Source of the DNA: Gemmatimonadota bacterium
GTDB lineage: Bacteria > Gemmatimonadota > Gemmatimonadetes > Palauibacterales > Palauibacteraceae
Reading direction: 5' to 3'
Length of the DNA: 64,000 nucleotides
Assembly (NCBI GenBank): GCA_039586095.1
Contig: JBDHLB010000002.1
Span: 64,300-128,299 of the forward strand
Position numbers and translations under genes: made by a program. Of the stretch, positions 18,826 through 30,083 are shown one piece after another. The notes beneath the pieces were generated by a model. The model had not been told where the DNA came from. It searched no databases and saw nothing but the letters and a program-made list of their open reading frames with translations. Position 1 is the stretch's first letter, and every line of letters begins with the position of its first letter.

Positions 18826-21800
18826 CTACCTCTCTACCGGACCCAGGTACTCGTCCAGCCAGGCCAGGGTCTCCTTGATGAACTCGCTCCGGGGCGGGAT
18901 GTGGTCGGTGTCGTAGAGGATGATCTGCTTGTGCTCGGCCGGCGTTCCCAGCAGATCGAACATGGGCTTGATGCCCGCATCGATCCGCACATCGTACTTC
19001 CCGTTCAGCATGAGCGTGGGTTTCCTGACCCGCGTCACGTAGTTGAGCGGGTGCACCTCGGGCCTTCCGAGGTCGAGTAGAGCCCCTGCCAGCAAAACGT
19101 TGGTGACGATGCGCTCCTCCACCGCCGGAATGATCGCTCCAAGTGCGCCGCCCATACTCATTCCGTAGTAGGCGATCTTCTCGCTGTCGATGTCCTCGCG
19201 CGTCTCGAGATAATCCAGGCTTCTTCGGAAATCCCTGACGACCTGGATCGTGAATTCGGAATACTGGTGGGACCTACTCTGCGGCGGCGGAGCCGGCATT
19301 CCGGGAACCTGCCGCTCGAATGTTCCCTTATAGACCGGATAGAGCACCGCGCGCCCGTTCGTCAGCAGGTAGGAGAGGAACATGGGGAACTCGTAGTAGT
19401 TCTCCAGACCCTCGCTCGACGCCGTGAAGGTAGAAGCACTCCCGGGGAAGTAGACGACCGTCTGGAAGGGAGGCGGCGTGTTGGTCGGAAGGAACAGGTG
19501 GGCTATGACCCGCTCACCGCCATAGGCAGCGTCGAAGGTGATCTTCTCCCGGATCCACCCTCCCGGGCCCTCCTCCCTGGACTCCACTCGAGCGTTGAGC
19601 GGTGTCTCGTCGTAGGAGAATTGCTCGCTGTAGATCTGGAAGATGTCATCGGAAACCGGCTGTTGCGCCCGAAGATCGGTGGGTGGACCGAGAGGCAGGA
19701 ACGCGAACGCGGCTTCGGGCACCGTCTCGGGATCCCGATAGACGGCCAGCCTGAAACCGTTGTTGGCCGAACGATCCATGGGTGGCGCCTGACGATTGAC
19801 GTTGAAGTCGTAGGTGTTGCCGTCCCACGCGCCGCCTCTGATAAGTCTTCCCTGCGGGGTCTCGTTCCAGCACCACTCCCGCACGTTGCCGGCCATGTCG
19901 TGCGCCCCATAGGCGGTGATGCCGCGGAGGCTACCGACCGGAACGGGCCCCTGGCCTCCGAAGTTGGCGAAGGGGGCAAAGACGGCGAAGCCTCCGAGCT
20001 GTGGCCACATGATCATCGGGGTGAAGCCGCCGCTCGCCGCATGCCAGTGGATGCCAGTAGGCAAGGTAGCGCCCGCATACTCCGCATACGCCGCCGCCTC
20101 GTACCAGCTCACTCCCGAGACCGGGTACTCCTCCCGGCCTGCGGGATAGTCTCCTCCCATCCAGCTGGAGGGGCCGGGCTGGCCCGACGGATCGACGAAC
20201 TCCCGCATAGCCCAGTCCCAGCTGATCTCCTCTCCGTCCTTTACGAAGGGGTGCCGCCAGTACTCCCGGTTCCTGTACCCACCCGCGTCGACGAAGCGCT
20301 TGTATTCCCGGTTCGTGACTTCGTACTTACCGATGAAGAAGTCATCCAGGGTGCCGCTGGGCGTGTCCGTGCTCTCGACCCGCACCATTCCAAGTGGAAC
20401 GCCGCCCTCCCGATCCAGCGTGCGAACGAGCTCGTACGGGACGAGGCCGACCCCGATTCCCTGTCTCGTCTGAACGGTAGGATCGAAGGCCCAGGTGGCG
20501 GCTGCTGCATGGACCGTCTCGTGCCTGTCCAGCTCGATCTTCCATCGGAAAATCCCCACGGGCACGCGCGCGCCCTCGAGGGGCGAGTCACCCAGGTAGG
20601 TCCACTCGGCATCAGGGTCCGCGAACTCCTTCATGTAGACGCGGGCGCCGGGCGGTGTCGTCCGCACGTTCATGTCCATGGCGACGCGGGAAAACACGTC
20701 GGCCAGCGCGGGGTCGTCCCCGAGGACGGCTTCGGCTTGCTCAGCGAGGCGATAGGGCGGTACGAGGTTGCGCCAGGTGTCGTTCTCCGCGATCAGCCGC
20801 TCGATCTCCGGGAGGGCCACCTCGCGCGCCCACGCTACCTCGGCGCGATGCTGGAAGAACCAGACGGTGGACGCTGCAACCGCTACGACAGCCAGCCCGG
20901 TCGCGATGGCCACCCGTGGCTGACGGAGGCGACGTACGAGCGATCGAATGTTGAAAACGCCGGCCGCCTCGGCGCGGAGGACTTCGGAGTATTTCCGGAG
21001 GTCCTCCACGATCTCCTCCGCCGAGGCGTAGCGGTCCGCGGGGTCCTTCTTCAGCGCCCGATCCACCACACGCTGGAGGGCGCCAGGAACGGGCGGTTCG
21101 CGGCGCGGGATGGGTCTCGGGTCCTCGTTCAGGATGTTGTAGATGACCGCAAGGTCGTTGGCGCCGACAAACGGCATCTCTCCGGTGAGCAGTTCGTAGA
21201 ACACGACTCCGGCTGACCACAGGTCGGATCGATGATCGACCTGCGCCCCGGACGCCTGTTCGGGCGACATGAAGCCGACCGTGCCGAGCGTCGTCTGCGT
21301 CTTGGTCAGCGACTCTCCGCCGTGGAGCTTGGCCAGTCCGAAATCCATGATCTTCGCCTGGCCCTTGTCCGTGATCATGATGTTGCTGCTCTTGATGTCA
21401 CGGTGGATGATGCCCTTGCCGTGGGCTTCGCCCAGCCCTCTGGCCACCTGCTCCATGAGTGCCGCGACCTCTTCGGTCGCCAGTGGCTCACGCTTGACCC
21501 TCTGCCGGAGCGTCTCCCCTTCGACATACTCCATCGCGATGAAGGGCAGGCCTTCATCCTCTGCCACCTCGTGAATGACGCAGATATTCGGGTGGGAGAG
21601 GGCCGCGGCGGCCTGTGCCTCGATGAGGAAGCGCGATCTGAGTTCGTCCAATGCAGCCAGGTGAGGAGGCAGGAACTTGAGGGCCACCCAGCGCTTGAGC
21701 TGCGTGTCACGGGCCTTGTAGACGACGCCCATCCCCCCGCGGCCGAGCTCCCGGGCAATCTCGTACTTTCCGCCGATCAAGCGATCGGTCGCCGCGAAAT

Positions 21801-21954
21801 CGGGTGTGTCGTCGAGTGGCTGATCTGCTGGGGGATCACTCTCGTGTTCAACCAGGCCCTCGTCACCGGCATGCTCGCCATGGAGAGGTGCCGAGCACTG
21901 GCCACAATACTTCGAATCGGTCGCGTTCTCGGAATGGCAGCGAGGACATTTCAT
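18826..21954 (-). CDS. Multidomain Ser/Thr protein kinase: Zn-ribbon, STK, TM, FGE-sulfatase (SUMF1) and alpha/beta-hydrolase
   Basis: ATG 21954 gives 'MKCPRCHSEN..YCGQC' (zinc ribbon). The kinase has 'HRDIKSSNIM', 'DFG' and 'SPEQ'. The TM helix is 'IATGLAVVAVAASTVWFF'. FGE-sulfatase blocks are 'FFIGKYEVTNREY', 'PVSGVSWYEAAAYAEYAG' and 'AGNVREWCWN...RGGAW'. The C-terminal hydrolase has the nucleophile elbow 'GMSMGG' and 'DTDH'. The track ORF (to 22545) is an N-terminal over-extension; ATG 22008 is an alternative start. Confidence 0.85.
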   Translation of the reverse strand: MKCPRCHSENATDSKYCGQCSAPLHGEHAGDEGLVEHESDPPADQPLDDTPDFAATDRLIGGKYEIARELGRGGMGVVYKARDTQLKRWVALKFLPPHLAALDELRSRFLIEAQAAAALSHPNICVIHEVAEDEGLPFIAMEYVEGETLRQRVKREPLATEEVAALMEQVARGLGEAHGKGIIHRDIKSSNIMITDKGQAKIMDFGLAKLHGGESLTKTQTTLGTVGFMSPEQASGAQVDHRSDLWSAGVVFYELLTGEMPFVGANDLAVIYNILNEDPRPIPRREPPVPGALQRVVDRALKKDPADRYASAEEIVEDLRKYSEVLRAEAAGVFNIRSLVRRLRQPRVAIATGLAVVAVAASTVWFFQHRAEVAWAREVALPEIERLIAENDTWRNLVPPYRLAEQAEAVLGDDPALADVFSRVAMDMNVRTTPPGARVYMKEFADPDAEWTYLGDSPLEGARVPVGIFRWKIELDRHETVHAAAATWAFDPTVQTRQGIGVGLVPYELVRTLDREGGVPLGMVRVESTDTPSGTLDDFFIGKYEVTNREYKRFVDAGGYRNREYWRHPFVKDGEEISWDWAMREFVDPSGQPGPSSWMGGDYPAGREEYPVSGVSWYEAAAYAEYAGATLPTGIHWHAASGGFTPMIMWPQLGGFAVFAPFANFGGQGPVPVGSLRGITAYGAHDMAGNVREWCWNETPQGRLIRGGAWDGNTYDFNVNRQAPPMDRSANNGFRLAVYRDPETVPEAAFAFLPLGPPTDLRAQQPVSDDIFQIYSEQFSYDETPLNARVESREEGPGGWIREKITFDAAYGGERVIAHLFLPTNTPPPFQTVVYFPGSASTFTASSEGLENYYEFPMFLSYLLTNGRAVLYPVYKGTFERQVPGMPAPPPQSRSHQYSEFTIQVVRDFRRSLDYLETREDIDSEKIAYYGMSMGGALGAIIPAVEERIVTNVLLAGALLDLGRPEVHPLNYVTRVRKPTLMLNGKYDVRIDAGIKPMFDLLGTPAEHKQIILYDTDHIPPRSEFIKETLAWLDEYLGPVER

Positions 21955-22344
21955 GAGGCTTCGATCCTTGATCGCACATGAATGCCGCACAGGAGACGAC
22001 TTCGGCATGAGAATAAAGCCTTCCCAAAGCCATTGGTAGATCGCCCGGCGCGACCCCCCGGTTGTGGTACAGCGTCCGGTCGGACGTTGCCGTCTCGCCA
22101 CACAACCCCCTCCGCGTACCACGGCGAGACACTCGTCGCCGATTCGTGGCAAAGGCGTGACACCGACTGTTTCTCCAGTAAACAAGCGGCATTCCGGGGA
22201 TGAGTTCGTCCGGAAACTGGCGAGAGGTCCGTGCGGGCGTATTTTTTGAACCTTCCACCGCTCGCTCCGGGGCCCATCGCCACACAGCGGGGCGTGGGGA
22301 ATGGGCGAAAAGTGATCCGCAAACTGCGGAAGATGCCGTAAAAT

Positions 22345-24069
22345 ATGGAGATAGGGGATCTGGTGGCGCGGGACCTCAAGGGAGACACCGAAAGAGGACC
22401 GAACGGCCGCCAGGACGGGGATTTTCCCGGCGTGTACGTCGCCGATGAGGAGGGCTCCGAGCCGGTGGTGCCCAGGGGAATGGGCCGATGGCATTATTCT
22501 CCCAGCACCGGCCAGATGTCCCGCGTCCGAGAGCTGCTCGAGCAAGGGAACATCTCGCTAATCCTGCCCACCGAGGTGTTTGTCCACTTCTACCCCGCCA
22601 GCCCCGAGCAGGTGATCAACGCCGCCTACGCCGCAGGCTTCAACGAGCTGTACTTCGAGACCCTGGGCGACGAGCTCGTCGCCATGGAGTACCTGCGACA
22701 GTGGCGTGAAAACACCGACAAGAAGACCTGGATTCGATCGACCAGCCCGCTGCTCGTCGAGTACTGCCGCTGGCGCCATCCGGAGCTGCTCGCCTATCTG
22801 GCGCCGATCGTGACTCCGCCAGTCGCCCTTGCCCGCTACCTGAAACGACAGTTGGGCGACGACAGGAGAATCGTGTACGCCGGACTCGACTTCCCGGCCA
22901 CCAACGGACATGAAGAGTTCGCTTCGCACATCTCCTTTCCGGAGCTGCAGCACCTGTTCGAGGAGCGCAGAGCGAGTCCCGGAGAGCAACCCATTCTTCT
23001 GCGGGTGATGCCGCCGGACCTCAGGCGATATCTGGCGGCACCCGGCGGCCTTCCTCTTCCCATGCTGGATCAGGAGAGGGCCTCCTCCCGCACGTTCCGG
23101 AAGTTGCGCGGGCTCCACACCCTGGAGGGACTCGCGGAGCTGGTGCAAACACCGGAAGGTCAGCAGCTGGGCTTCATCGACGTACTACCGTTCGATGGGC
23201 TGCTGGATCACCCCGCGCTGGGTGATCCGAACCGGCTGTACTGGCGCCGCAGCCTGCTTCAGCTGGCCGAGCCGGCACGTTCGGAGCGGCCGATCATCTC
23301 GGTGCCGGACGACATTGATCTTTCGACCTCGTTCCCGCCACGGGAATCCACCCTGCCGGAGGACGAGATCCAGGAGGTCGTGCGGGCCCTGGAGGAAGTC
23401 GGGACCACCCACGACGGCGGTGTGTGGAAGACGGATCCGCTGGGCTACGCGCGCTATCTGTCACTCACCGAATCGATCATGCGCTCGCGGCCCGAGCTAG
23501 CCGTCGGACTGTTCCACATGAGCCGCAACTACTCCCGTGCCGTGCGGGACGCGACCCACGATGCGCTCACCGACCTGTACAGCTATCGAGCGCTCGTGGA
23601 GCGTGTGCGGGAGGAGATGGGTCAGGCGAATCGTGCTGGATCCTCGATCGCCATGTTGTTCGTCGATCTCGACGACTTCAAAGAGATTAACGATAGGTAT
23701 GGGCATCCGACGGGGAACGAGATCCTGAAGGGTGTGGCGAGCGTTTTGCAGCAGAGCATGCGTAGCACGGACATCGCCGGTCGGTTCGGAGGCGACGAGT
23801 TCGTCGTGCTGCTCGTCGATTCGGACGAGAACGGCGCCGTGCGGGTCGCGGAACAGATTCGCGAAGGTGTAGCCGGCACCTTCGTGGAGATCCCCGGCGG
23901 AAAGGTCGGTACCACGGTGAGCATCGGTGTGGCATTTCATGACGCGGCGACGCGCGCACTCACCTCGAGCGACGAACTGTTCGCGGAAGCCGATGCCTCG
24001 CTGTACATTGCCAAGGCCCAGGGGGGCAACCGTGTCCATCCAGCGGTGAGGGAAGGGACTCCTCAATGA
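22345..24069 (+). CDS. Diguanylate-cyclase-type GGDEF protein with N-terminal cysteine-less [FeFe]-hydrogenase-like (Fe_hyd_lg_C-like) domain
   Basis: C-terminal GGDEF: 'LFVDLDDFKEINDRYGHPTGNEIL', I-site 'RSTD' and 'GGDEF' (23788-23802). The N-terminal ~290 aa is collinear with hydrogenase H-domain blocks but lacks all H-cluster cysteines (see findings). The start is uncertain: ATG 22345, 22480 or 22516. A TAAAAT -10-like box at 22336-22341 would favour the downstream starts. Confidence 0.8.
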   Translation: MEIGDLVARDLKGDTERGPNGRQDGDFPGVYVADEEGSEPVVPRGMGRWHYSPSTGQMSRVRELLEQGNISLILPTEVFVHFYPASPEQVINAAYAAGFNELYFETLGDELVAMEYLRQWRENTDKKTWIRSTSPLLVEYCRWRHPELLAYLAPIVTPPVALARYLKRQLGDDRRIVYAGLDFPATNGHEEFASHISFPELQHLFEERRASPGEQPILLRVMPPDLRRYLAAPGGLPLPMLDQERASSRTFRKLRGLHTLEGLAELVQTPEGQQLGFIDVLPFDGLLDHPALGDPNRLYWRRSLLQLAEPARSERPIISVPDDIDLSTSFPPRESTLPEDEIQEVVRALEEVGTTHDGGVWKTDPLGYARYLSLTESIMRSRPELAVGLFHMSRNYSRAVRDATHDALTDLYSYRALVERVREEMGQANRAGSSIAMLFVDLDDFKEINDRYGHPTGNEILKGVASVLQQSMRSTDIAGRFGGDEFVVLLVDSDENGAVRVAEQIREGVAGTFVEIPGGKVGTTVSIGVAFHDAATRALTSSDELFAEADASLYIAKAQGGNRVHPAVREGTPQ

Positions 24070-24791
24070 GGGAAGAGTCTAGGGAGGTGGAGGTCAGGGG
24101 GATGGACCCCTGGGGTCTGCGTCGTGTCGAGCAGCTCCTCCAAACCGTCGAAGGTGTCAATTCGCTCAAGCTCGTCCCAGACGAGCGTGGCGGGATTGAC
24201 GAAATCCACGTCCTCAGCAGCTCGAGTCTCGGGGCGAAGCAAATCGTTCGGAACATCGAGTCTGCCCTTCTCGCCCAATTCGGGCTTCAGGTAGACCACC
24301 GCAAGATCTCCATTGCCCAGGTCAAGGATCAGGGCATCCCGCTGGCCGAGGTCGTCGCGCAGGCGGAAGAGGCCCTAGGGGCCCCGCCAGCGCCGCGGCG
24401 TCTGGTCATCGAGGGATTCCAACTCGAACGCCATGCCGGCGAAAGCGTGGTGTGCCGGGTCGAGCTGCGATCGGGAGAGAACACCTACGAAGGAGAGGCG
24501 ACCGGGCCGGATTACGCGCGCTCCCGCCTCGAGATCGCGGGTCAGGCGGTACTCAACGCCCTCAGCAAGGTAGCCGATGGAAAAGCCTCCTTCGCGATCG
24601 AGGGCGTGACGCAGATCGAGTTGTTCAACCGGGATCTCGTGATCGCGATGGTGCAGGCGTTCGCGGGTCGCCGGCCGATCAACCTGCCCGGCATCGCAGA
24701 GATCCGGGACTCGATCGAGGAGAGCGTGGTCTACGCCTGCTTGAACGCCGCCAATCGATGGATCGGTAACCTCCCCGAGCCCGGGGAGTAA
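24066..24791 (+). CDS. Hypothetical protein (241 aa), translationally coupled to the GGDEF gene
   Basis: ATG 24066 overlaps the GGDEF stop (ATGA). High GC3. No motif I can name. It reads as two alpha/beta halves ('GVNSLKLVPDERGGIDEIHVL...KQIVRNIESAL' and 'VCRVELRSGENTYEGEATGPDYARSRLEIAGQAVLNAL'). Confidence 0.7.
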   Translation: MREESREVEVRGMDPWGLRRVEQLLQTVEGVNSLKLVPDERGGIDEIHVLSSSSLGAKQIVRNIESALLAQFGLQVDHRKISIAQVKDQGIPLAEVVAQAEEALGAPPAPRRLVIEGFQLERHAGESVVCRVELRSGENTYEGEATGPDYARSRLEIAGQAVLNALSKVADGKASFAIEGVTQIELFNRDLVIAMVQAFAGRRPINLPGIAEIRDSIEESVVYACLNAANRWIGNLPEPGE

Positions 24792-24986
24792 CTCGCAAAC
24801 TTGCGGACGACCGGCCGAGCGTGTCCATTGGCACGTTCGGCATACTATAGGGATTTGGCAGGAGCTGGAGAAAAAGGCCCCCAGGTTCGTAAAGCCTTAC
24901 CCGAGTTGAGCTGAGAGAACCTCCGAGCGGAGACAGGCGCATCCATAGCGGAACGGATGCGACTTCGTGTAGAAAGGAGGTCGACT

Positions 24987-25034
24987 ATGTGGGCTCTGGC
25001 TGTCGCGCTTTTAGCAGGCACACTTAAGTGGTAA
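24987..25034 (+). CDS. 15-codon hydrophobic mini-ORF / uORF (MWALAVALLAGTLKW) ahead of the HD-GYP gene
   Basis: Near-perfect SD AAAGGAGG (24973-24980), a 6-nt spacer, ATG 24987 and TAA 25032-25034. It ends 24 nt before the HD-GYP ATG, which has no obvious SD of its own. Confidence 0.35.
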   Translation: MWALAVALLAGTLKW

Positions 25035-25058
25035 CGGCGCGGACTTGGGGGCTTTCCT

Positions 25059-26378
25059 ATGCTGCAAGATCACCGCTTGCGAGCGTTCCTTATCTTTGTA
25101 GTCGGGGCCGCTAGCGCTTCGCTGCCAGCTTCGTTTTGGCTGTACCCGCCGCCCATCACGCCTGATTGGCTGCTCGCGTTCGTAACCCTCTTAGCCCTCG
25201 CGATCGTAGGGGCAATCCTAGCTCTCAAGATTACCGAGGGAGGCAGTACAACTTCCATGGAGTTCGTGCCTCAACTCGGCGCGATCCCATTGCTTGGGCC
25301 AGCGGGCGCGATCACGCTAACTCTTGTAACGCAGTTCTTCACCGAATTCCTGTTACTCAAGAAACCGACACAGAAGGCGATCTTTAATACAGCTCAGGTA
25401 GTCCTCTCCGTAATGCTCGCGAGCTCTCTGTATATAGCTTTCGGGGCCCGACCTAGTCTTGAGGCGCTCTCTGTCGCAGGCACTTTCCCACCATTTCTTG
25501 TCGCGGTTGTTGGTTACTTTTCGGTAAATACTGTTTCCGTTTCTTATGTGATTTCGCTCGTCGAGAAGCGGCCTTTCCGTGAGGTCTGGCAGCGTACTGC
25601 AGGGAGCATCATTGTCTTCGATTTGGCCATTAGTCCACTGGCGTATCTCGTTGCATACCTCTACGTGCAGTGGGGCGCTGCTGCGCTGCTGGCAGCGATT
25701 ATCCCAATCATTGCTCTACGCTATACCTATGGCGTCAACATTGAGCTTCAGCAGCTGAACCAAGACTTGCTTCGTGTCTTGATTAAGACTCTCGAAGCAA
25801 GGGACAAGTACACATCGGGTCATTCGTTGCGAGTTGCCGAACGGTCCAAGAGAATTGCTCAAGCGCTTCAACTTCGACTTTCTGATGTCCGGATTATCGA
25901 GACTGCCGCACTCTTACATGATATTGGAAAGATTGACCTTGCTTACGGAGACATCCTTCGGCAGTCTGGCCCCCTCAGCCCTACGCAACGCGAGTTGATC
26001 CGCTCACATCCGCAGAAGGGCGTTGATATTATCGGAGGCGTTCGCGCCCTTGACCCAGAGGTCTTGAGGTGTGTCCGACACCATCACGAATGGTACGATG
26101 GCTCCGGCTATCCATCAGGAATTGCCGGTGCCGACATCCCGTTGGGCGCTCGAATCATCATGGTGAGCGATTCAATAGATGCGATGTTGACGGATCGACC
26201 TTATCGCTCCGCCCTTAGCGTCGAGCAAGTTCGGCAGGAAATCATTCGTAATACATCAACGCAGTTTGACCCGTTGATCGTCGAAATCGTGATGGAGGAA
26301 GGGATTCTGGAGGAAGCGCAGTCTGCTTTTGAGCGTACCGTGTATGTTCATGGTCGCCCAGCCGTGGCTCTCGATTAG
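25059..26378 (+). CDS. Membrane-anchored HD-GYP domain cyclic-dinucleotide phosphodiesterase
   Basis: About 7 N-terminal TM helices, followed by 'GHSLRVAE', 'LLHDIGK' and 'HHEWYDGSGYP' (HHExxDGxGYP), i.e. an intact HD-GYP catalytic set. Confidence 0.9.
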   Translation: MLQDHRLRAFLIFVVGAASASLPASFWLYPPPITPDWLLAFVTLLALAIVGAILALKITEGGSTTSMEFVPQLGAIPLLGPAGAITLTLVTQFFTEFLLLKKPTQKAIFNTAQVVLSVMLASSLYIAFGARPSLEALSVAGTFPPFLVAVVGYFSVNTVSVSYVISLVEKRPFREVWQRTAGSIIVFDLAISPLAYLVAYLYVQWGAAALLAAIIPIIALRYTYGVNIELQQLNQDLLRVLIKTLEARDKYTSGHSLRVAERSKRIAQALQLRLSDVRIIETAALLHDIGKIDLAYGDILRQSGPLSPTQRELIRSHPQKGVDIIGGVRALDPEVLRCVRHHHEWYDGSGYPSGIAGADIPLGARIIMVSDSIDAMLTDRPYRSALSVEQVRQEIIRNTSTQFDPLIVEIVMEEGILEEAQSAFERTVYVHGRPAVALD

Positions 26379-26386
26379 AGTAAAAG

Positions 26387-29300
26387 CTAAGACTGCGCGT
26401 GTAGGCTGGTATCTCTGCACCAGCGCGACGCACAACGAACGAACCAACCGAGACCTATTGCTCTGAGTTGACGTTTGAGCGTTTGAGTGTTTTCACCGCT
26501 GATTTGATCGGCAACACCCCGACTACCGAAGACGCGTACCAAGCTCTCGTGCAGCCACAGGAGTTTTAGATAGCCAATCAAGTCCCGGGGCTGCTCTTCC
26601 AGAGCCGCATCTTTTAGTTGACGAACGGCGGCTTCGTTGTTGCGCAGGATCTTCTGAACTGCTGCAAGAAACCACTCAGCCTTGAATCTCTCTTGGACAC
26701 CGACTGTGCCAAGCTGCATCAATCCGTCGACGCGTTCCCACAGCGATTCGGCCTCGCTCCAGCGACCCAATTGAAGAGCCACAAGTCCCCGGGTGGAATA
26801 CACTTCGATCGCCGACGACTCTAATGAATTCCGGTCGCACATGGCAACCGCTCTCGTGAGTCGTTCCTCGGCCTCGCGTAAGCGTCCCTGATAGAAGTAT
26901 CCAGTTGCCAGGTTGAGCAAAGGCGTCAGCGCTAGGTGCGTCCCCGCGGAAAGGGAATCGTCGAGTCTCATACACTCGTAGCAGTACGTCTCTACTCGCT
27001 TCCAGTCTCCCCTTTCCAATGCCAAGCAAGCTAAGTTGTTCGAAAAGTGAGCCTGAAACAGCAGATCCTCTGACTGGGCTGCTCTCTCGAGCCCCCTTGA
27101 GAGAACAGTATCAGCAGTACCCCAATCCGCCTGACGAATGTGTATCATCGACCGGGCCAAGAGGATAGACAGGTGTGAGCGAGTGGAGCATTCCGCTGCC
27201 GTTTCGGCGACAGAATCCAGCATCACCTCGGCTGAAGTCAGCGACTGGGCAAACAAATTGTGAATAGCAAGCGTATAGGCAGCTTGAACAATCGACTCCG
27301 GCTCAGCTAACTGCCTCTCGGCACTCCGCAGGATCAAGGTGTTCAGTCTTTGGCTCGTCGTCAGAGCAGTCTCTCGGTCCTCTGTGAGCACGCTCAGTTT
27401 GAGGCGGAGCGACAGAATCCTCAGCAGATGGGTGTTGGTCGCCGAGCCACCGCCGGAGTTTTCAATCCCCGACTCCGCGCGTACGAGGGTGTCTTCGGCT
27501 GCTAACCAGTCACAACACTCAATCTGTCCGCTCGCCAAAAGGATTTGAAGTTCGTAGTGATTATCGAGAACCTGATCCACATCCCTGTCAAGAAGCTCTT
27601 CCAGGACGTTGCACAGTTCTTGGTACTTACCCAGCCGCTCGTATGCTTTGGCCGCGAGCAACAAGGCATCGACTGTCTCGGTTCTCGTATGCGCAGTCGA
27701 TGTCGCTACCCTAGCTAGCTTGGCGGCTCTTTCGTTCTCAAGGCGATCAAGTGCCTTGGCACACGCTCGCATAGCAGTCTCGTATGCGTGACCATAGTTA
27801 CGCGATCGCTCATAGTGTCGCGCAACGACGAGCATGTCGACTCCGGATTGGTGCTGTGCCAAATGTTCTGCTGCGCTGAAATGCAGGGCGGCCCTACGAA
27901 GCTCTCCAATCCGTGCATACACAAACTCGCGCAGAATCGGATGCTGGTACGAACATTTTGCCGCGTCGCCCCTCAGGATTGAACGCTTCTCTAGCTTGCT
28001 GGCGGCGTACATAGACTCGGTTCCGGTGAGACCAGCTACCTGTCCAGCTAAGTACAATTGGGCAGAACCATCTAGCACACTTGAAGCCTCCAGGAGCCTG
28101 ACTTCAGTACCCGAGAGAGATTCAACGCGCGTCGCAAGACTGTTTCGGAGTCTGTCTGTCAAATAGTCGGAAGGCCGCTCAGGCTCCTCACGCCGATTTG
28201 CCACGGCACGATTCATTTCAAGAGCAAAGAATGGGTTGCCTCCGCACAATTGTGCGATGGCCTCGCGGTGATCATTTGCCAATCGACCGTTGGAAGCGGC
28301 ATTCAAAAGATCCCTGACCTCCCCAGGCGCCAATGCACCTACATCAGCAATGTGAGCATTAGCGCAGACAGCGACATCGTCTAGCAGGCGGCGCAGTGCG
28401 GATCCGACATCTCGCGAAGTGTCATAGGCGAGAATGACGATCAGGGGTCGAGATTCCATCCGATCAAGGACGTAGCTAAGCAAAGCCGCCGAATCCAAGT
28501 CAAGCCACTGGATGTCATCAAGGATCAGACAGATCGGGCCATGTACGAAAGTCTGGTTGAGAACGGCCATCATCGCGTCCCTGATCTCCGTTAGGTCTGG
28601 AGATGGAGGTTTGGCCTGACTTGTGTAGTTCTCTGGCTCAGGACCGGGATATGGACTGAGTAGTTTAGATAGGGCTGTAAGGCGAGTTGATGAGGGACTG
28701 GAAGGCACTCCGAAAGCTTCAAGAATTGCTCCGAGCGGTCGGTGCATATCCGTAGCGCGACATCGACCTCTCAGGACCTTGTAACCATTTGAGACGGCGA
28801 GACTCTGCGCCTCTTCGCACAAGCGCGTTTTGCCAATACCGGTTTCGCCACGAAGGAGGAGAACGGTCGAACCTACGTTATGTGCTGCGGCAAGCAAGCG
28901 TCTGAGAATAGAGAGTTCGCGCCGCCTGCCACACAGCGTTGTAGTTGGCACGCCGGTTGAGCCCGACTCGATCGCAACTCGGCTAGCAGACTCTATCCGA
29001 TTCCTCAAAGCAAGCAACTCGCGCGACGGTGGGACCCCCAACTCTCTTCGAATCATAGAGGCTGTATCATCGAATTGCTGAAGCGCTGATCGTGGATCAC
29101 CTCCTAGCCAGAGTGCCTGCATGAGGTGCAAGTGTGCATCTTGGTCCAGGGGATCCAGCGTGACCAGCTTTGCTGCCGAAACGCACATTTCCGCCCAGGC
29201 TCCAGCTTGTTCACACGCCCGCACGTACTTTCGCAACGCGTTGACGGCAAGCAGCTTGTAGTGGGCTCTCTGCTGTTCAAGCCATTCTTCGAATTCTCTC

Positions 29301-29686
29301 GTCCCTGTGTCATCTAAGTCTTCCGCGAACTCTCCACGGTAGAGCGCCACGGCCTCGCTCTGGTTGTCTTCTCGTAGCAGGTCTTCAAAATGGGCAGCTT
29401 CGTAATCGATACCGCTCGCATTGACTGTAAGCCAGCCAGAGCGCGTAGTAATCCTCAGGTCCGACACGCGCTTTCGTATATCGTATAGAGCTTGACTTAG
29501 GGAGTGCCTAGATCGCTCGCGCTTACCGACCCAAAGGAGCTTTGCTAACTGGCGTCGGGACATAGCCCGATCGGAGTTGGCAACCAGATAGAGCAGCAGA
29601 GCGAGGTGCTTCCGCGACCGCAGTCTCGCCTCAATGCCGCCGGACAAAGTGATCTTGGTCTGGCCAAAACAGCGAAGTGTCAACAT
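26387..29686 (-). CDS. SARP/AfsR-like regulator: OmpR-type wHTH, BTAD, STAND/AAA ATPase and TPR-like repeats (1099 aa)
   Basis: The N-terminus 'MLTLRCFGQTKITLSGG...RKHLALLLYLV...LAKLLW' is a SARP winged helix. 'ALYRGEFAEDL...EWLEQQR' is the BTAD. Walker A 'GETGIGKT' and Walker B 'ICLILDDIQWLD'. The long helical-repeat C-terminus follows. It is convergent with HD-GYP across an 8-nt gap. Confidence 0.85.
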   Translation of the reverse strand: MLTLRCFGQTKITLSGGIEARLRSRKHLALLLYLVANSDRAMSRRQLAKLLWVGKRERSRHSLSQALYDIRKRVSDLRITTRSGWLTVNASGIDYEAAHFEDLLREDNQSEAVALYRGEFAEDLDDTGTREFEEWLEQQRAHYKLLAVNALRKYVRACEQAGAWAEMCVSAAKLVTLDPLDQDAHLHLMQALWLGGDPRSALQQFDDTASMIRRELGVPPSRELLALRNRIESASRVAIESGSTGVPTTTLCGRRRELSILRRLLAAAHNVGSTVLLLRGETGIGKTRLCEEAQSLAVSNGYKVLRGRCRATDMHRPLGAILEAFGVPSSPSSTRLTALSKLLSPYPGPEPENYTSQAKPPSPDLTEIRDAMMAVLNQTFVHGPICLILDDIQWLDLDSAALLSYVLDRMESRPLIVILAYDTSRDVGSALRRLLDDVAVCANAHIADVGALAPGEVRDLLNAASNGRLANDHREAIAQLCGGNPFFALEMNRAVANRREEPERPSDYLTDRLRNSLATRVESLSGTEVRLLEASSVLDGSAQLYLAGQVAGLTGTESMYAASKLEKRSILRGDAAKCSYQHPILREFVYARIGELRRAALHFSAAEHLAQHQSGVDMLVVARHYERSRNYGHAYETAMRACAKALDRLENERAAKLARVATSTAHTRTETVDALLLAAKAYERLGKYQELCNVLEELLDRDVDQVLDNHYELQILLASGQIECCDWLAAEDTLVRAESGIENSGGGSATNTHLLRILSLRLKLSVLTEDRETALTTSQRLNTLILRSAERQLAEPESIVQAAYTLAIHNLFAQSLTSAEVMLDSVAETAAECSTRSHLSILLARSMIHIRQADWGTADTVLSRGLERAAQSEDLLFQAHFSNNLACLALERGDWKRVETYCYECMRLDDSLSAGTHLALTPLLNLATGYFYQGRLREAEERLTRAVAMCDRNSLESSAIEVYSTRGLVALQLGRWSEAESLWERVDGLMQLGTVGVQERFKAEWFLAAVQKILRNNEAAVRQLKDAALEEQPRDLIGYLKLLWLHESLVRVFGSRGVADQISGENTQTLKRQLRAIGLGWFVRCASRWCRDTSLHAQS

Positions 29687-29759
29687 GGCGTATCCGCTGG
29701 CTCAGAATGTTTCCCTTTGTATAAGTTGGCGCCTGGTATCAACGTCCCCTCAACGCTAC

Positions 29760-30083
29760 CTACTCCACCTCCTTCTCTAGCCGGCGGGCGCTGATCTGAA
29801 AGTGCGAGGCGTGCCAGGCGGGCTTTCCGTGCTCGAGCAGGATGGCTTGCGGCGACTGATGCGCGATCTCGAGGTGGTCTGCAACGGCGTTCGACAGGTC
29901 GCGATCGGCCACTACGTCGATTAGATAGACCGGAACGTCAGGCACCTGCTCGGCAAACTTCTCGACCTCACGCAATGTGCGGAGCGAGATCCCGCAGCGG
30001 GGACTGTGCTTGTACAACACGGCACGGGGCTGCTCTAAAGCGGCCTTGAGATCTTCGTCGGTGTGCACGGGTTCGATCGGCAC
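29760..30083 (-). CDS. ytxJ: YtxJ-type (DUF2847) monothiol thioredoxin-like protein, bacillithiol-system associated
   Basis: 107 aa. GTG 30083 with AGGAGG 8 nt upstream. 'VLYKHSPRCGIS' matches the YtxJ 'KHS.RC.IS' redox motif. Confidence 0.75.
   Translation of the reverse strand: MPIEPVHTDEDLKAALEQPRAVLYKHSPRCGISLRTLREVEKFAEQVPDVPVYLIDVVADRDLSNAVADHLEIAHQSPQAILLEHGKPAWHASHFQISARRLEKEVE

Follow-up and report, generated by a model that had tools for sequence, protein, structure and literature searches.

In the leaders of ermC/ermB, cat/cmlA, secM-secA and mifM-yidC2, a short open reading frame (ORF) with a strong Shine–Dalgarno sequence (SD) lies in or beside a helix in which the ribosome-binding site of the following gene is sequestered. 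The position of the ribosome on the leader decides whether this site is opened, and the peptide carries a C-terminal motif by its stop codon. In the hut and trp operons of Bacillus, controlled by HutP and TRAP respectively, a leader with repeated short motifs directly follows the gene of its regulator, an oligomeric protein whose fold binds a small molecule and which lacks an enzymatic output domain. Here we report a locus that resembles both, found in a 64,000-nucleotide stretch (the window; contig JBDHLB010000002.1) of a 3.3-Mb, 86%-complete metagenome-assembled genome (MAG) of a Gemmatimonadota bacterium. It contains genes for a GGDEF cyclase, a 241-aa protein, a MASE9-HD-GYP phosphodiesterase and a SARP-STAND regulator, and a leader RNA with a micro-ORF precedes the phosphodiesterase gene.

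Compared with the erm, cat, secM and mifM leaders, this leader differs in its long-range (~170 nt) helix, which encloses the whole of the micro-ORF, and in its three AGCGRA boxes, a hairpin (P3) and an anti-SD; the regulated gene is a cyclic di-GMP (c-di-GMP) phosphodiesterase, and stalling is putative here. The 241-aa protein is related to HutP and TRAP neither in sequence nor in fold, and the control proposed for it would affect translation rather than termination. The phosphodiesterase shares its MASE9-HD-GYP architecture with TM1467 and with HdgA (vnz24090) of Streptomyces venezuelae, a membrane-bound protein that ranks near the bottom of the c-di-GMP enzymes in expression and shows no phenotype (PMC6205966; bioRxiv 10.1101/2021.11.05.467447). 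A leader, a micro-ORF or a partner gene is not described in those papers.

A first reading of the window from its letters, made without database searches (the sequence-only reading), had proposed a composite cyclic-dinucleotide signalling locus of five adjacent genes, in which breaker and regulator had arrived on a foreign low-GC segment. We conclude that cyclase, 241-aa protein, phosphodiesterase and regulator on balance probably form an old, vertically inherited Gemmatimonadota signalling cassette, not a foreign chimera, in which translation of the phosphodiesterase is gated by the leader. The conserved, structured leader RNA, which the sequence-only reading did not mention, is more informative than any other part of the locus.

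Results

A four-gene order conserved in two families

All five ORFs of the sequence-only reading were present in the order claimed, as judged from ORF calls and from Pfam and NCBIfam hits. Synteny in relatives had been set beforehand as the test of the locus, and four of the genes passed it together. The order cyclase, 241-aa gene, HD-GYP gene and convergent SARP-STAND gene holds in seven loci that belong to other genera of the family and, as far as the contigs reach, in all 38 loci of a species-representative collection. The sister family has the same order: L079 carries all four genes, and the contigs of two further loci (L077 and L078) end within the HD-GYP gene. The genes that flank the module differ between loci, so that the adjacency of maker, 241-aa protein, breaker and regulator extends to many genera of two families. 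In a complete sister-family genome (locus L018, genome G028), an Fe–S cyclase gene and the 241-aa gene are followed by an ORF for a 984-aa coiled-coil protein and by unknown ORFs, and the leader, HD-GYP and SARP genes are not beside them; this is the sole exception to the four-gene order that was seen.

The fifth gene did not behave as part of this unit. Its product, labelled a sensor kinase in the sequence-only reading, is a Hanks-type Ser/Thr kinase, and HisKA and HATPase_c are not among its Pfam or NCBIfam domains. It adjoins the module in a same-genus genome (L022) and is not beside it in the other loci. Because its synteny is restricted to the genus, we exclude the Ser/Thr kinase from the system.

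In eight of the 38 loci (L040, L041, L047, L052, L054, L062, L063 and L066), the contig ends within ~250 nt or less of the leader core, in several cases inside the micro-ORF, and the HD-GYP and SARP half then often falls on another contig or outside the bin. These breaks fit assembly graphs that branch where co-occurring relatives share a near-identical stretch, which is presumably their cause.

Homologues of the 241-aa protein are also found in Bacillota (Phosphitispora sp. TUW77 and several MAGs among them), at 30–36% identity. In all seven distant loci, from Bacillota and other lineages, the homologue gene lies 330–450 nt upstream of a MASE9-HD-GYP gene, with a leader between them and no cyclase gene beside them; a convergent SARP-STAND gene is present in one of the seven. 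Because these loci keep the homologue with the HD-GYP gene and without a cyclase, we conclude that the conserved partner of the 241-aa protein is the phosphodiesterase unit, not the cyclase, whose specific partner or receptor it had been suggested to be. The deep core held in common with Bacillota would comprise a regulatory protein of ~210–250 aa, a ~190-nt leader with its micro-ORF and a MASE9-HD-GYP phosphodiesterase; in the bacterial order to which the window belongs, a GGDEF cyclase would have been added upstream and a SARP-STAND regulator downstream.

In five of the Bacillota loci (L080, L081, L085, L086 and L088), the unit lies between hpf, which encodes a ribosome hibernation factor, and secA. 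It runs from the homologue gene through the leader and the MASE9-HD-GYP gene, at times followed by a second HD-GYP gene, to a gene for a DUF5317 membrane protein; a cold-shock gene and the flagellar gene fliS lie further upstream.

A leader RNA with a covarying long-range helix

The spacer between the 241-aa gene and the HD-GYP gene is the most conserved DNA of the locus. We analysed its structure in 31 distinct leader sequences. In a long-range helix, P1, the 22 nt that precede the HD-GYP start are paired with a segment ~170 nt upstream; this helix covers the HD-GYP initiation region and encloses the micro-ORF (Table 1). Within the alignment, 83.5% of cells pair, compared with 37–54% when the partner is slid. 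Both sides change in 15 pairs, of which P1 contributes 12, and the covariation score is 0.233, compared with 0.162 ± 0.010 in shuffles, none of which reached it in 500 trials. Compensatory changes are found in P3 as well (GC16/AU15, UA15/CG14 and CG16/GC3/UA3).

The energies of the paired strands agree with this. As calculated by RNAduplex, P1 duplexes average −36.5 kcal/mol for cognate strands and −26.5 kcal/mol for non-cognate strands taken from other loci, and in GC-rich loci they are more stable than dinucleotide shuffles, with z between −3.4 and −5.7. Such shuffles were used in place of a cross-phylum matrix of cognate and non-cognate duplexes, which is confounded by segment length and GC content. 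The minimum free energy (MFE) of the leader in the window is −90 kcal/mol (z −3.6).

Between the first two AGCGRA boxes lies a CCUCC tract, which RNAalifold pairs with the GGAGG of the micro-ORF SD in 31 of 31 sequences; these bases are invariant, and this anti-SD helix is a predicted pairing only. The third box occupies the loop of P3.

The exact core motif occurs as a single copy in eight of 401 Gemmatimonadota genomes. A covariance model of the leader, R1, detects it in 26 of the 61 genomes of the order, in both families, with one hit each and two in one genome. The R1 hit is beside the 241-aa gene wherever coordinates are comparable (about a dozen genomes); in G012, as far as coordinates alone tell, the RNA is ~2 kb from the 241-aa gene and on the opposite strand. 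Rfam 15 gave no match to the leader at E ≤ 5 in the window, nor at E ≤ 10 in the leaders of Phosphitispora (Bacillota) and of one metagenomic homologue. A scan for promoters and terminators found no terminator between the 241-aa gene and the HD-GYP gene and no convincing promoter, and the counts were not above those of shuffles. The 241-aa gene has a 7-bp G+C-rich hairpin (CTCCCCG/CGGGGAG) in its final codons, adjoining the TAA stop and not followed by a T-run. The leader appears to be an undescribed folded RNA that contains a tiny peptide gene.

The leaders of the distant loci have no detectable overall sequence similarity to that of the window, and R1 scores them at just 11–22 bits. The same design is nevertheless found in them. 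Their long-range helices are formed by strands that are unrelated but complementary: GGACCGACAG/CTGTCGGTC, GGACCGACTT/AAGTCGGTCC, GGGCCGGCAC/GTGCCGGCCC and GGATCGGCGG..CAGCGC/GCGCTGCCGCCGATCC. Of the three (G/U)AGCGRA boxes that they contain, the last occupies a hairpin loop; an SD follows, and then hydrophobic micro-ORFs that end in ..LAGGAGFKY, ..LAGGGKYNW, ..LAGGANWRV and similar sequences. The tract between boxes 1 and 2 changes together with the SD, as compared by eye, being AACC(C)/GGG(G)UU in distant leaders and CCUCC/GGAGG in the family of the window.

The micro-ORF is under selection for its peptide

The upstream ORF that the sequence-only reading had placed before the membrane HD-GYP gene is indeed present, as 15 codons behind the SD AAAGGAGG, and micro-ORFs of 14–31 codons are found in the relatives. 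Gly at position −6 is present in 31 of 32 micro-ORF sequences and Trp is the last residue in 28, with all three stop codons in use; the C-terminal motif G-[TK]-[LVI]-[RKD]-W-stop is conserved with synonymous codon variation. Because the conserved Gly and Thr are each encoded by four synonymous codons, we conclude that the micro-ORF is under selection at the amino-acid level. The ending G-T-L/V-R/K-W-stop matches no arrest peptide known to us. In some lineages the C-terminal unit is tandemly repeated, with GGTVRW occurring three times (L059 of G006) and TGKILW twice (L044, L058 and L064, the G020 clade). The peptide of L083 ends in PPP-stop instead.

Selection on the peptide would also be expected if the micro-ORF encoded a functional membrane micropeptide that partners MASE9, as MgrB partners PhoQ, with P1 merely coupling translation. 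We regard this as a serious possibility, although not the probable one, and it is compatible with gating of the phosphodiesterase by the leader. The peptide always travels with MASE9, and in Bacillota the related peptides (24–33 aa) have a Lys-rich N-terminus, a hydrophobic stretch of 15–17 residues and a conserved LAGG, ending in ..LAGG..aromatic-stop. The peptides of Gemmatimonadota, however, at 14–21 aa, are too short for a membrane span; what is conserved in them is the C-terminal motif, and its tandem duplication fits a tunnel or termination signal better than a membrane partner.

Phosphodiesterase, cyclase and messenger

We aligned the HD-GYP domain to PmGH (4mcw) and V-cGAP3 (5z7c). It has the catalytic motifs LLHDIGK, HHEWYDGSGYP and DRPYR, and is preceded by a MASE9 domain (PF20972, residues 67–222) that scores above the gathering threshold. 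Its RPYR aligns with the RPYK of PmGH, a c-di-GMP enzyme, and with the RPYR of V-cGAP3. Rxx(K/R) is the guanine-recognition rule for c-di-GMP HD-GYPs, whereas PmxA, which is specific for cyclic GMP-AMP (cGAMP), has RxxQ/N (bioRxiv 10.1101/600031).

The cyclase keeps RFGGDEF and DLDDFK, including the Mg-binding Asp equivalent to PleD D327, and an intact RxxD I-site five residues before GGDEF (RSTDIAGRFGGDEF), conserved in 87 of 90 family members. The equivalent of PleD Lys442 is also present (IAK). One residue of the guanine-binding pair, equivalent to Asn335, is kept (EIND); the other, equivalent to Asp344, is Asn (GHPTGN), and the altered base-specificity residue of the sequence-only reading is thereby confirmed by alignment to structures. 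This Asn stands opposite the Asp of DosC and the Ser of 6d9m, a Geobacter GGDEF domain fused to T4 lysozyme and the best match of the cyclase in the Protein Data Bank (PDB). It is invariant in the 81 family members with a readable motif, and the four other intact GGDEF domains of the genome have Asp. In PleD, D344 contacts the guanine base and is reported to be essential for activity (PMC7288161). Setting aside Hallberg et al. 2016 (PNAS), where Asn variants may be listed, we found no published statement on Asn at this GGDEF position. At the position of PleD Arg446 (~residue 560, AKAQGGNR), placed by motif and not by structure, 64 of 85 members have Gly and 21 have Arg, with an Arg two residues later; the Gly may be a second departure from the canonical active site, at a phosphate contact.

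Because the catalytic and guanine-reading motifs of the HD-GYP domain are of the c-di-GMP type and the cyclase I-site is kept, we believe that the messenger is most likely c-di-GMP, the invariant Asn leaving room for another product. The cyclase could instead, as a Hypr-like variant, make 3'3'-cGAMP, c-di-AMP or another dinucleotide, or be a non-catalytic receptor; we consider this unlikely, though far from negligible. It would account for the invariance of Asn at a Watson–Crick-face position in this family alone among the GGDEF domains of the genome, and is in line with the Ser of 6d9m, the reported need for D344 and the frequent Gly at the Arg446 position. The family shares with the Hypr enzymes GacA, GacB and Bd0367 the natural replacement of the Watson–Crick-face Asp, a retained I-site and an exclusive GGDEF: all 87 members in which the motif pattern matched have GGDEF and none GGEEF, as reported for Ser/Thr Hypr enzymes (eLife 2019, PMC6456294). 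It differs from them in having Asn in place of Ser/Thr at position 348 (GacA numbering), and Asn is still able to donate to, or accept from, guanine. The I-site conservation speaks against a product other than c-di-GMP, as does the company that the cyclase keeps: the adjacent HD-GYP domain has the canonical guanine-reading RPYR and not the RxxQ/N of PmxA, and the Rfam scan of the window found no cGAMP riboswitch.

The N-terminal region of the cyclase is homologous to the H-domain of [FeFe]-hydrogenases, as the sequence-only reading had it. A working cofactor sensor is another matter, since the entire region contains one Cys and no H-cluster motif. TSCCP, MPCxxK and CxxGCxxG are present in no family member, the Fe–S-bearing orthologues included, and IRSTSPLLVEY and LAPIVTP occupy the places of H-cluster motifs. 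Orthologues at 36–49% identity, those of the sister family among them, have motifs for two 4Fe-4S clusters of the ferredoxin type and, at the C-terminus, a 4-Cys motif (PF04060), with 11–18 Cys in all, whereas the clade of the window has 1–3 Cys and has lost the Fe–S cysteines. The group C/D HydS-type domains, putative sensory relatives of [FeFe]-hydrogenases, likewise have an H-domain-like fold fused to a signalling output, and differ in these same cysteines and in the STSP that here replaces TSCCP and the missing MPCxxK. By its sequence, the hydrogenase-like sensor of this genome appears to be a cofactor-less relic. Because residues 1–55 are not conserved outside the genus, the true start of the cyclase may lie downstream of the annotated one.

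The 241-aa protein as a candidate reader of the leader

The ATG of the 241-aa gene overlaps the TGA of the cyclase gene (ATGA), in agreement with the translational coupling proposed earlier. The protein matched no Pfam or NCBIfam family. It is highly conserved, with a full-length orthologue in 28 of 41 related genomes, and a profile search returned 2643 cluster representatives, 137 of them below 1e-30; against PDB sequences the same profile gave chance-level matches only, to archaeal RNA polymerase A'' (E ~1). An AlphaFold model, made with 30 homologues, has a mean predicted local distance difference test score (pLDDT) of 83 and consists of two domains. Residues 18–85 form an alpha-beta-beta-alpha-beta ferredoxin-like unit, nearest to the C-terminal domains of CDF transporters (CzcD, TM-score 0.72, E 0.06). 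Residues 114–233 form a (beta-beta-beta-alpha)x2 unit which, in Foldseek, matches the leucine- or isoleucine-binding regulatory domains of LeuA and citramalate synthase (3fig, E 3.6e-6; 3f6g, TM-score 0.63 on the target). The 241-aa protein has the fold of this allosteric domain (PF08502) and a GPD-type motif; it differs in being unattached to a synthase and in its marginal sequence similarity, four of 30 members matching PF08502 with a best E of 0.0027.

The state of the leader may be set by a factor bound to the three AGCGRA boxes. Because the leader directly follows its gene in every locus read whose DNA reaches upstream (the inversion in G012, taken from coordinates, aside), the 241-aa protein is the best candidate, and we speculate that it would follow the logic of HutP and TRAP, with a ligand in its LeuA-type domain. 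Going further, the protein may be the first member of a new family of translational regulators that bind RNA under the control of a ligand and combine a ferredoxin-like with a LeuA-type sensor domain, with the triple AGCGRA leader as operator; together with the Trp-tailed micro-ORF it would set the level of MASE9-HD-GYP proteins in at least two phyla, and its ligand in Gemmatimonadota would be the product of the Asn-type cyclase, perhaps not c-di-GMP. We put this extended proposal forward as a conjecture that is more likely to be wrong than right.

The boxes and the P3 loop could instead form the aptamer of a true riboswitch, which would bind a small ligand, such as the dinucleotide of the neighbouring cyclase, and need no protein, the 241-aa protein then acting on the enzymes. 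c-di-GMP riboswitches are common in front of phosphodiesterase genes; the element likewise precedes such a gene, is found once per genome with one exception, and has invariant unpaired nucleotides around covarying helices, all of which a riboswitch would explain. We nevertheless think it improbable. Even at the permissive thresholds given above, no Rfam family was matched, a hexamer repeated three times is more typical of binding by an oligomeric protein than of an aptamer, the element regulates a single gene class, and the gene immediately 5' always encodes the same regulatory protein.

Low GC content of the phosphodiesterase and regulator genes

The drop in GC content on which the proposal of a foreign segment was based is real and extreme. 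GC content is 0.51–0.57 across ~25000–29700, compared with 0.62–0.68 in the flanks, and among 3482 long ORFs of the genome the HD-GYP gene is the lowest (0.536) and the SARP gene the second-lowest (0.554), with a genome mean of 0.664 and a standard deviation of 0.021. The deficit sits at third codon positions, where GC content (GC3) is 0.57 for HD-GYP and 0.58 for SARP, compared with 0.78–0.80 for their neighbours; rare codons make up 23% of either gene and 6–8% of the neighbours.

That the segment is foreign did not hold up. HD-GYP orthologues in eight other genera, whose proteins are just 50–66% identical, have a GC content of 0.48–0.57 and a GC3 of 0.43–0.66, whereas the adjoining cyclase and 241-aa genes have a GC content of ~0.65 and a GC3 of 0.72–0.92. 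The SARP orthologues likewise fall below their surroundings, less markedly. Because the HD-GYP orthologues share low GC and GC3 across eight genera, we conclude that this composition is a maintained property of these genes. Rare-tRNA gating, binding by a silencer, or avoidance of mRNA structure are possible causes.

No tRNA, integrase, transposase or flanking repeat was found in the flanks of the locus, whose genes encode a BrxC-type bacilliredoxin, a thioesterase and an MFS/TLC-like transporter. A genomic island or other recent transfer was therefore rejected, the atypical composition being common to orthologues in eight genera. A chimeric circuit, formed when the HD-GYP and SARP genes recently arrived on a foreign low-GC segment beside a resident cyclase operon, would explain the sharp GC steps at ~24800 and ~29750, the position of these genes at the bottom of the GC ranking with their many rare codons, and the lack of both in the same-genus bin G001, but it is largely refuted by synteny and we give it very little credence, because the low GC is equally present in diverged orthologues, two families keep the gene order, more than one phylum has the deeper unit (241-aa gene, leader and HD-GYP gene), the flanks are free of the mobility features sought, and the G001 contig merely ends inside the micro-ORF.

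The SARP-STAND regulator and neighbouring genes

The gene described earlier as a STAND/TPR regulator encodes a protein with an OmpR-type winged helix–turn–helix (wHTH; 24.6 bits, just below the cut-off of 26.2), a BTAD domain (E 5.5e-18), a P-loop NTPase domain of the AAA_16 type (E 1e-20) and TPR hits, with Walker A (GETGIGKT) and Walker B (LILDD) intact. It is convergent with the HD-GYP gene, the two being 8 bp apart. The large SARPs of the AfsR type have the same succession of wHTH, BTAD, P-loop STAND NTPase and TPR. The protein of the window differs from them in coming from Gemmatimonadota and not from Actinomycetota, in matching the AfsR model weakly (25.6 bits, compared with a cut-off of 1430), and in that the adjoining Ser/Thr kinase is not conserved alongside it. 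Between genera it is 28–33% identical, whereas the other three proteins reach 50–66%, a difference to be expected of a sensor arm that evolves fast.

A role of the STAND protein in defence was considered and rejected: PADLOC returned no defence-system hit for the SARP, the 241-aa protein or the cyclase, and matched the kinase to generic kinase models only. A search for SARP-type direct repeats in three intergenic regions gave one weak 9-nt pair only. A gene for a BrxC-type monothiol bacilliredoxin lies 73 nt upstream of the SARP start, on the same strand, and is not conserved in relatives; the SARP gene may be co-transcribed with it. The kinase gene, next to the cyclase gene within the genus only, has its ATG at 21954 and not at 21955.

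Table 1. Positions of the genes and leader elements in the window
Feature	Positions	Strand	Description
Kinase fusion	18826–21954	−	1042 aa; N-terminal zinc ribbon, then Hanks-type Pkinase (E 6e-52), FGE-sulfatase-type and dienelactone-hydrolase (DLH)-like domains
Cyclase	22345–24069	+	574 aa; Fe_hyd_lg_C-like (partial match, E 6e-9) and GGDEF (E 3e-39)
241-aa protein	24066–24791	+	two-domain; start overlaps cyclase stop
G+C-rich hairpin	24771–24788		in last codons of 241-aa gene
P1 5' strand	24867–24896	+	core 24875–24890, AGGCCCCCAGGTTCGT; RNAduplex, MFE fold, covariation
Box 1, anti-SD, box 2	24908–24932	+	box 1 GAGCTGAGAGAA; CCTCC 24920–24924; box 2 GAGCGGAG 24925–24932; alignments
P3 hairpin	24938–24961	+	CGCATCC/GGATGCG; loop ATAGCGGAAC is box 3 (AGCGG); compensatory changes
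Shine–Dalgarno sequence AAAGGAGG	from 24973	+	GGAGG 24976–24980
Micro-ORF	24987–25034	+	15 codons, MWALAVALLAGTLKW-stop
P1 3' strand	25036–25057	+	starts 1 nt past micro-ORF stop; all 22 nt before HD-GYP ATG; GGGGG 25047–25051
MASE9-HD-GYP phosphodiesterase	25059–26378	+	MASE9 29.8 bits (cut-off 24.3); HD_5 E 5e-30
SARP-STAND regulator	26387–29686	−	1099 aa; wHTH/BTAD, AAA_16, TPR
BrxC-type bacilliredoxin	29760–30083	−	upstream of SARP gene

Discussion

We propose the following model for the locus. The cyclase and the 241-aa protein, whose genes overlap, would be co-translated. The phosphodiesterase gene follows on the same strand, not separated from them by a recognisable terminator, and synthesis of the enzyme would be gated post-transcriptionally. 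Because P1 encloses the micro-ORF, with just 1 nt between the stop codon and the 3' strand of the helix, a ribosome that reads the micro-ORF to its end would have to unzip P1 and so expose the ribosome-binding region of the HD-GYP gene. Translation of the micro-ORF would in this way license that of the phosphodiesterase, as in the erm, cat, secM and mifM leaders. The SD of the micro-ORF would itself be masked by the anti-SD between two AGCGRA boxes, a predicted pairing whose two sides change together between phyla, and a factor bound to the three boxes, perhaps the 241-aa protein, would set the switch. The net effect would be that the breaker is made only under the condition that the leader reads, with maker and 241-aa protein made constitutively from the same strand. 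We consider gated translation of the phosphodiesterase the likely mechanism.

Several observations weigh against this model. In the AT-rich leaders of Bacillota, P1 is no better than shuffles (z −0.1 to −1.3). The anti-SD:SD helix and the three boxes are invariant within the family of the window (f1), and their role is read from a comparison across clades by eye. The sister family (f2) has no CCUCC at this place, so the anti-SD is not universal; it holds in f1 and, by eye, in Bacillota. In some clades the HD-GYP start lies 15–40 nt beyond P1, perhaps with an SD of its own. The N-terminal domain of the 241-aa protein best matches the metal-binding C-terminal domains of CDF transporters, and its RNA-binding role is putative. 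Conservation of the peptide across phyla fits a functional membrane micropeptide equally well. Finally, the same-genus genome G001 has no assembled HD-GYP or SARP orthologue; its contig (C10) terminates inside the micro-ORF. The riboswitch, the MASE9 micropeptide and a product other than c-di-GMP are not all exclusive of gating by the leader.

The conservation of the leader DNA has a practical consequence: it probably leads to the frequent assembly breaks, and the module can be hidden from MAG-based surveys. The rare-codon extreme of the HD-GYP gene, kept across genera and shared by the SARP gene in this genome, is a regulatory hint. The cyclase family offers a natural experiment on the residue that sets GGDEF specificity, and extends the Ser/Thr question of the Hypr enzymes to Asn; its Fe–S-bearing and Fe–S-less orthologues present a sensor domain that is losing its cofactor while the cassette is retained. 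HD-GYP phosphodiesterases with MASE9 are widespread yet poorly understood, HdgA being the only one studied. The conserved leader, micro-ORF and dedicated partner described here give a testable reason for the low expression and lack of phenotype of HdgA, and point to a missing input.

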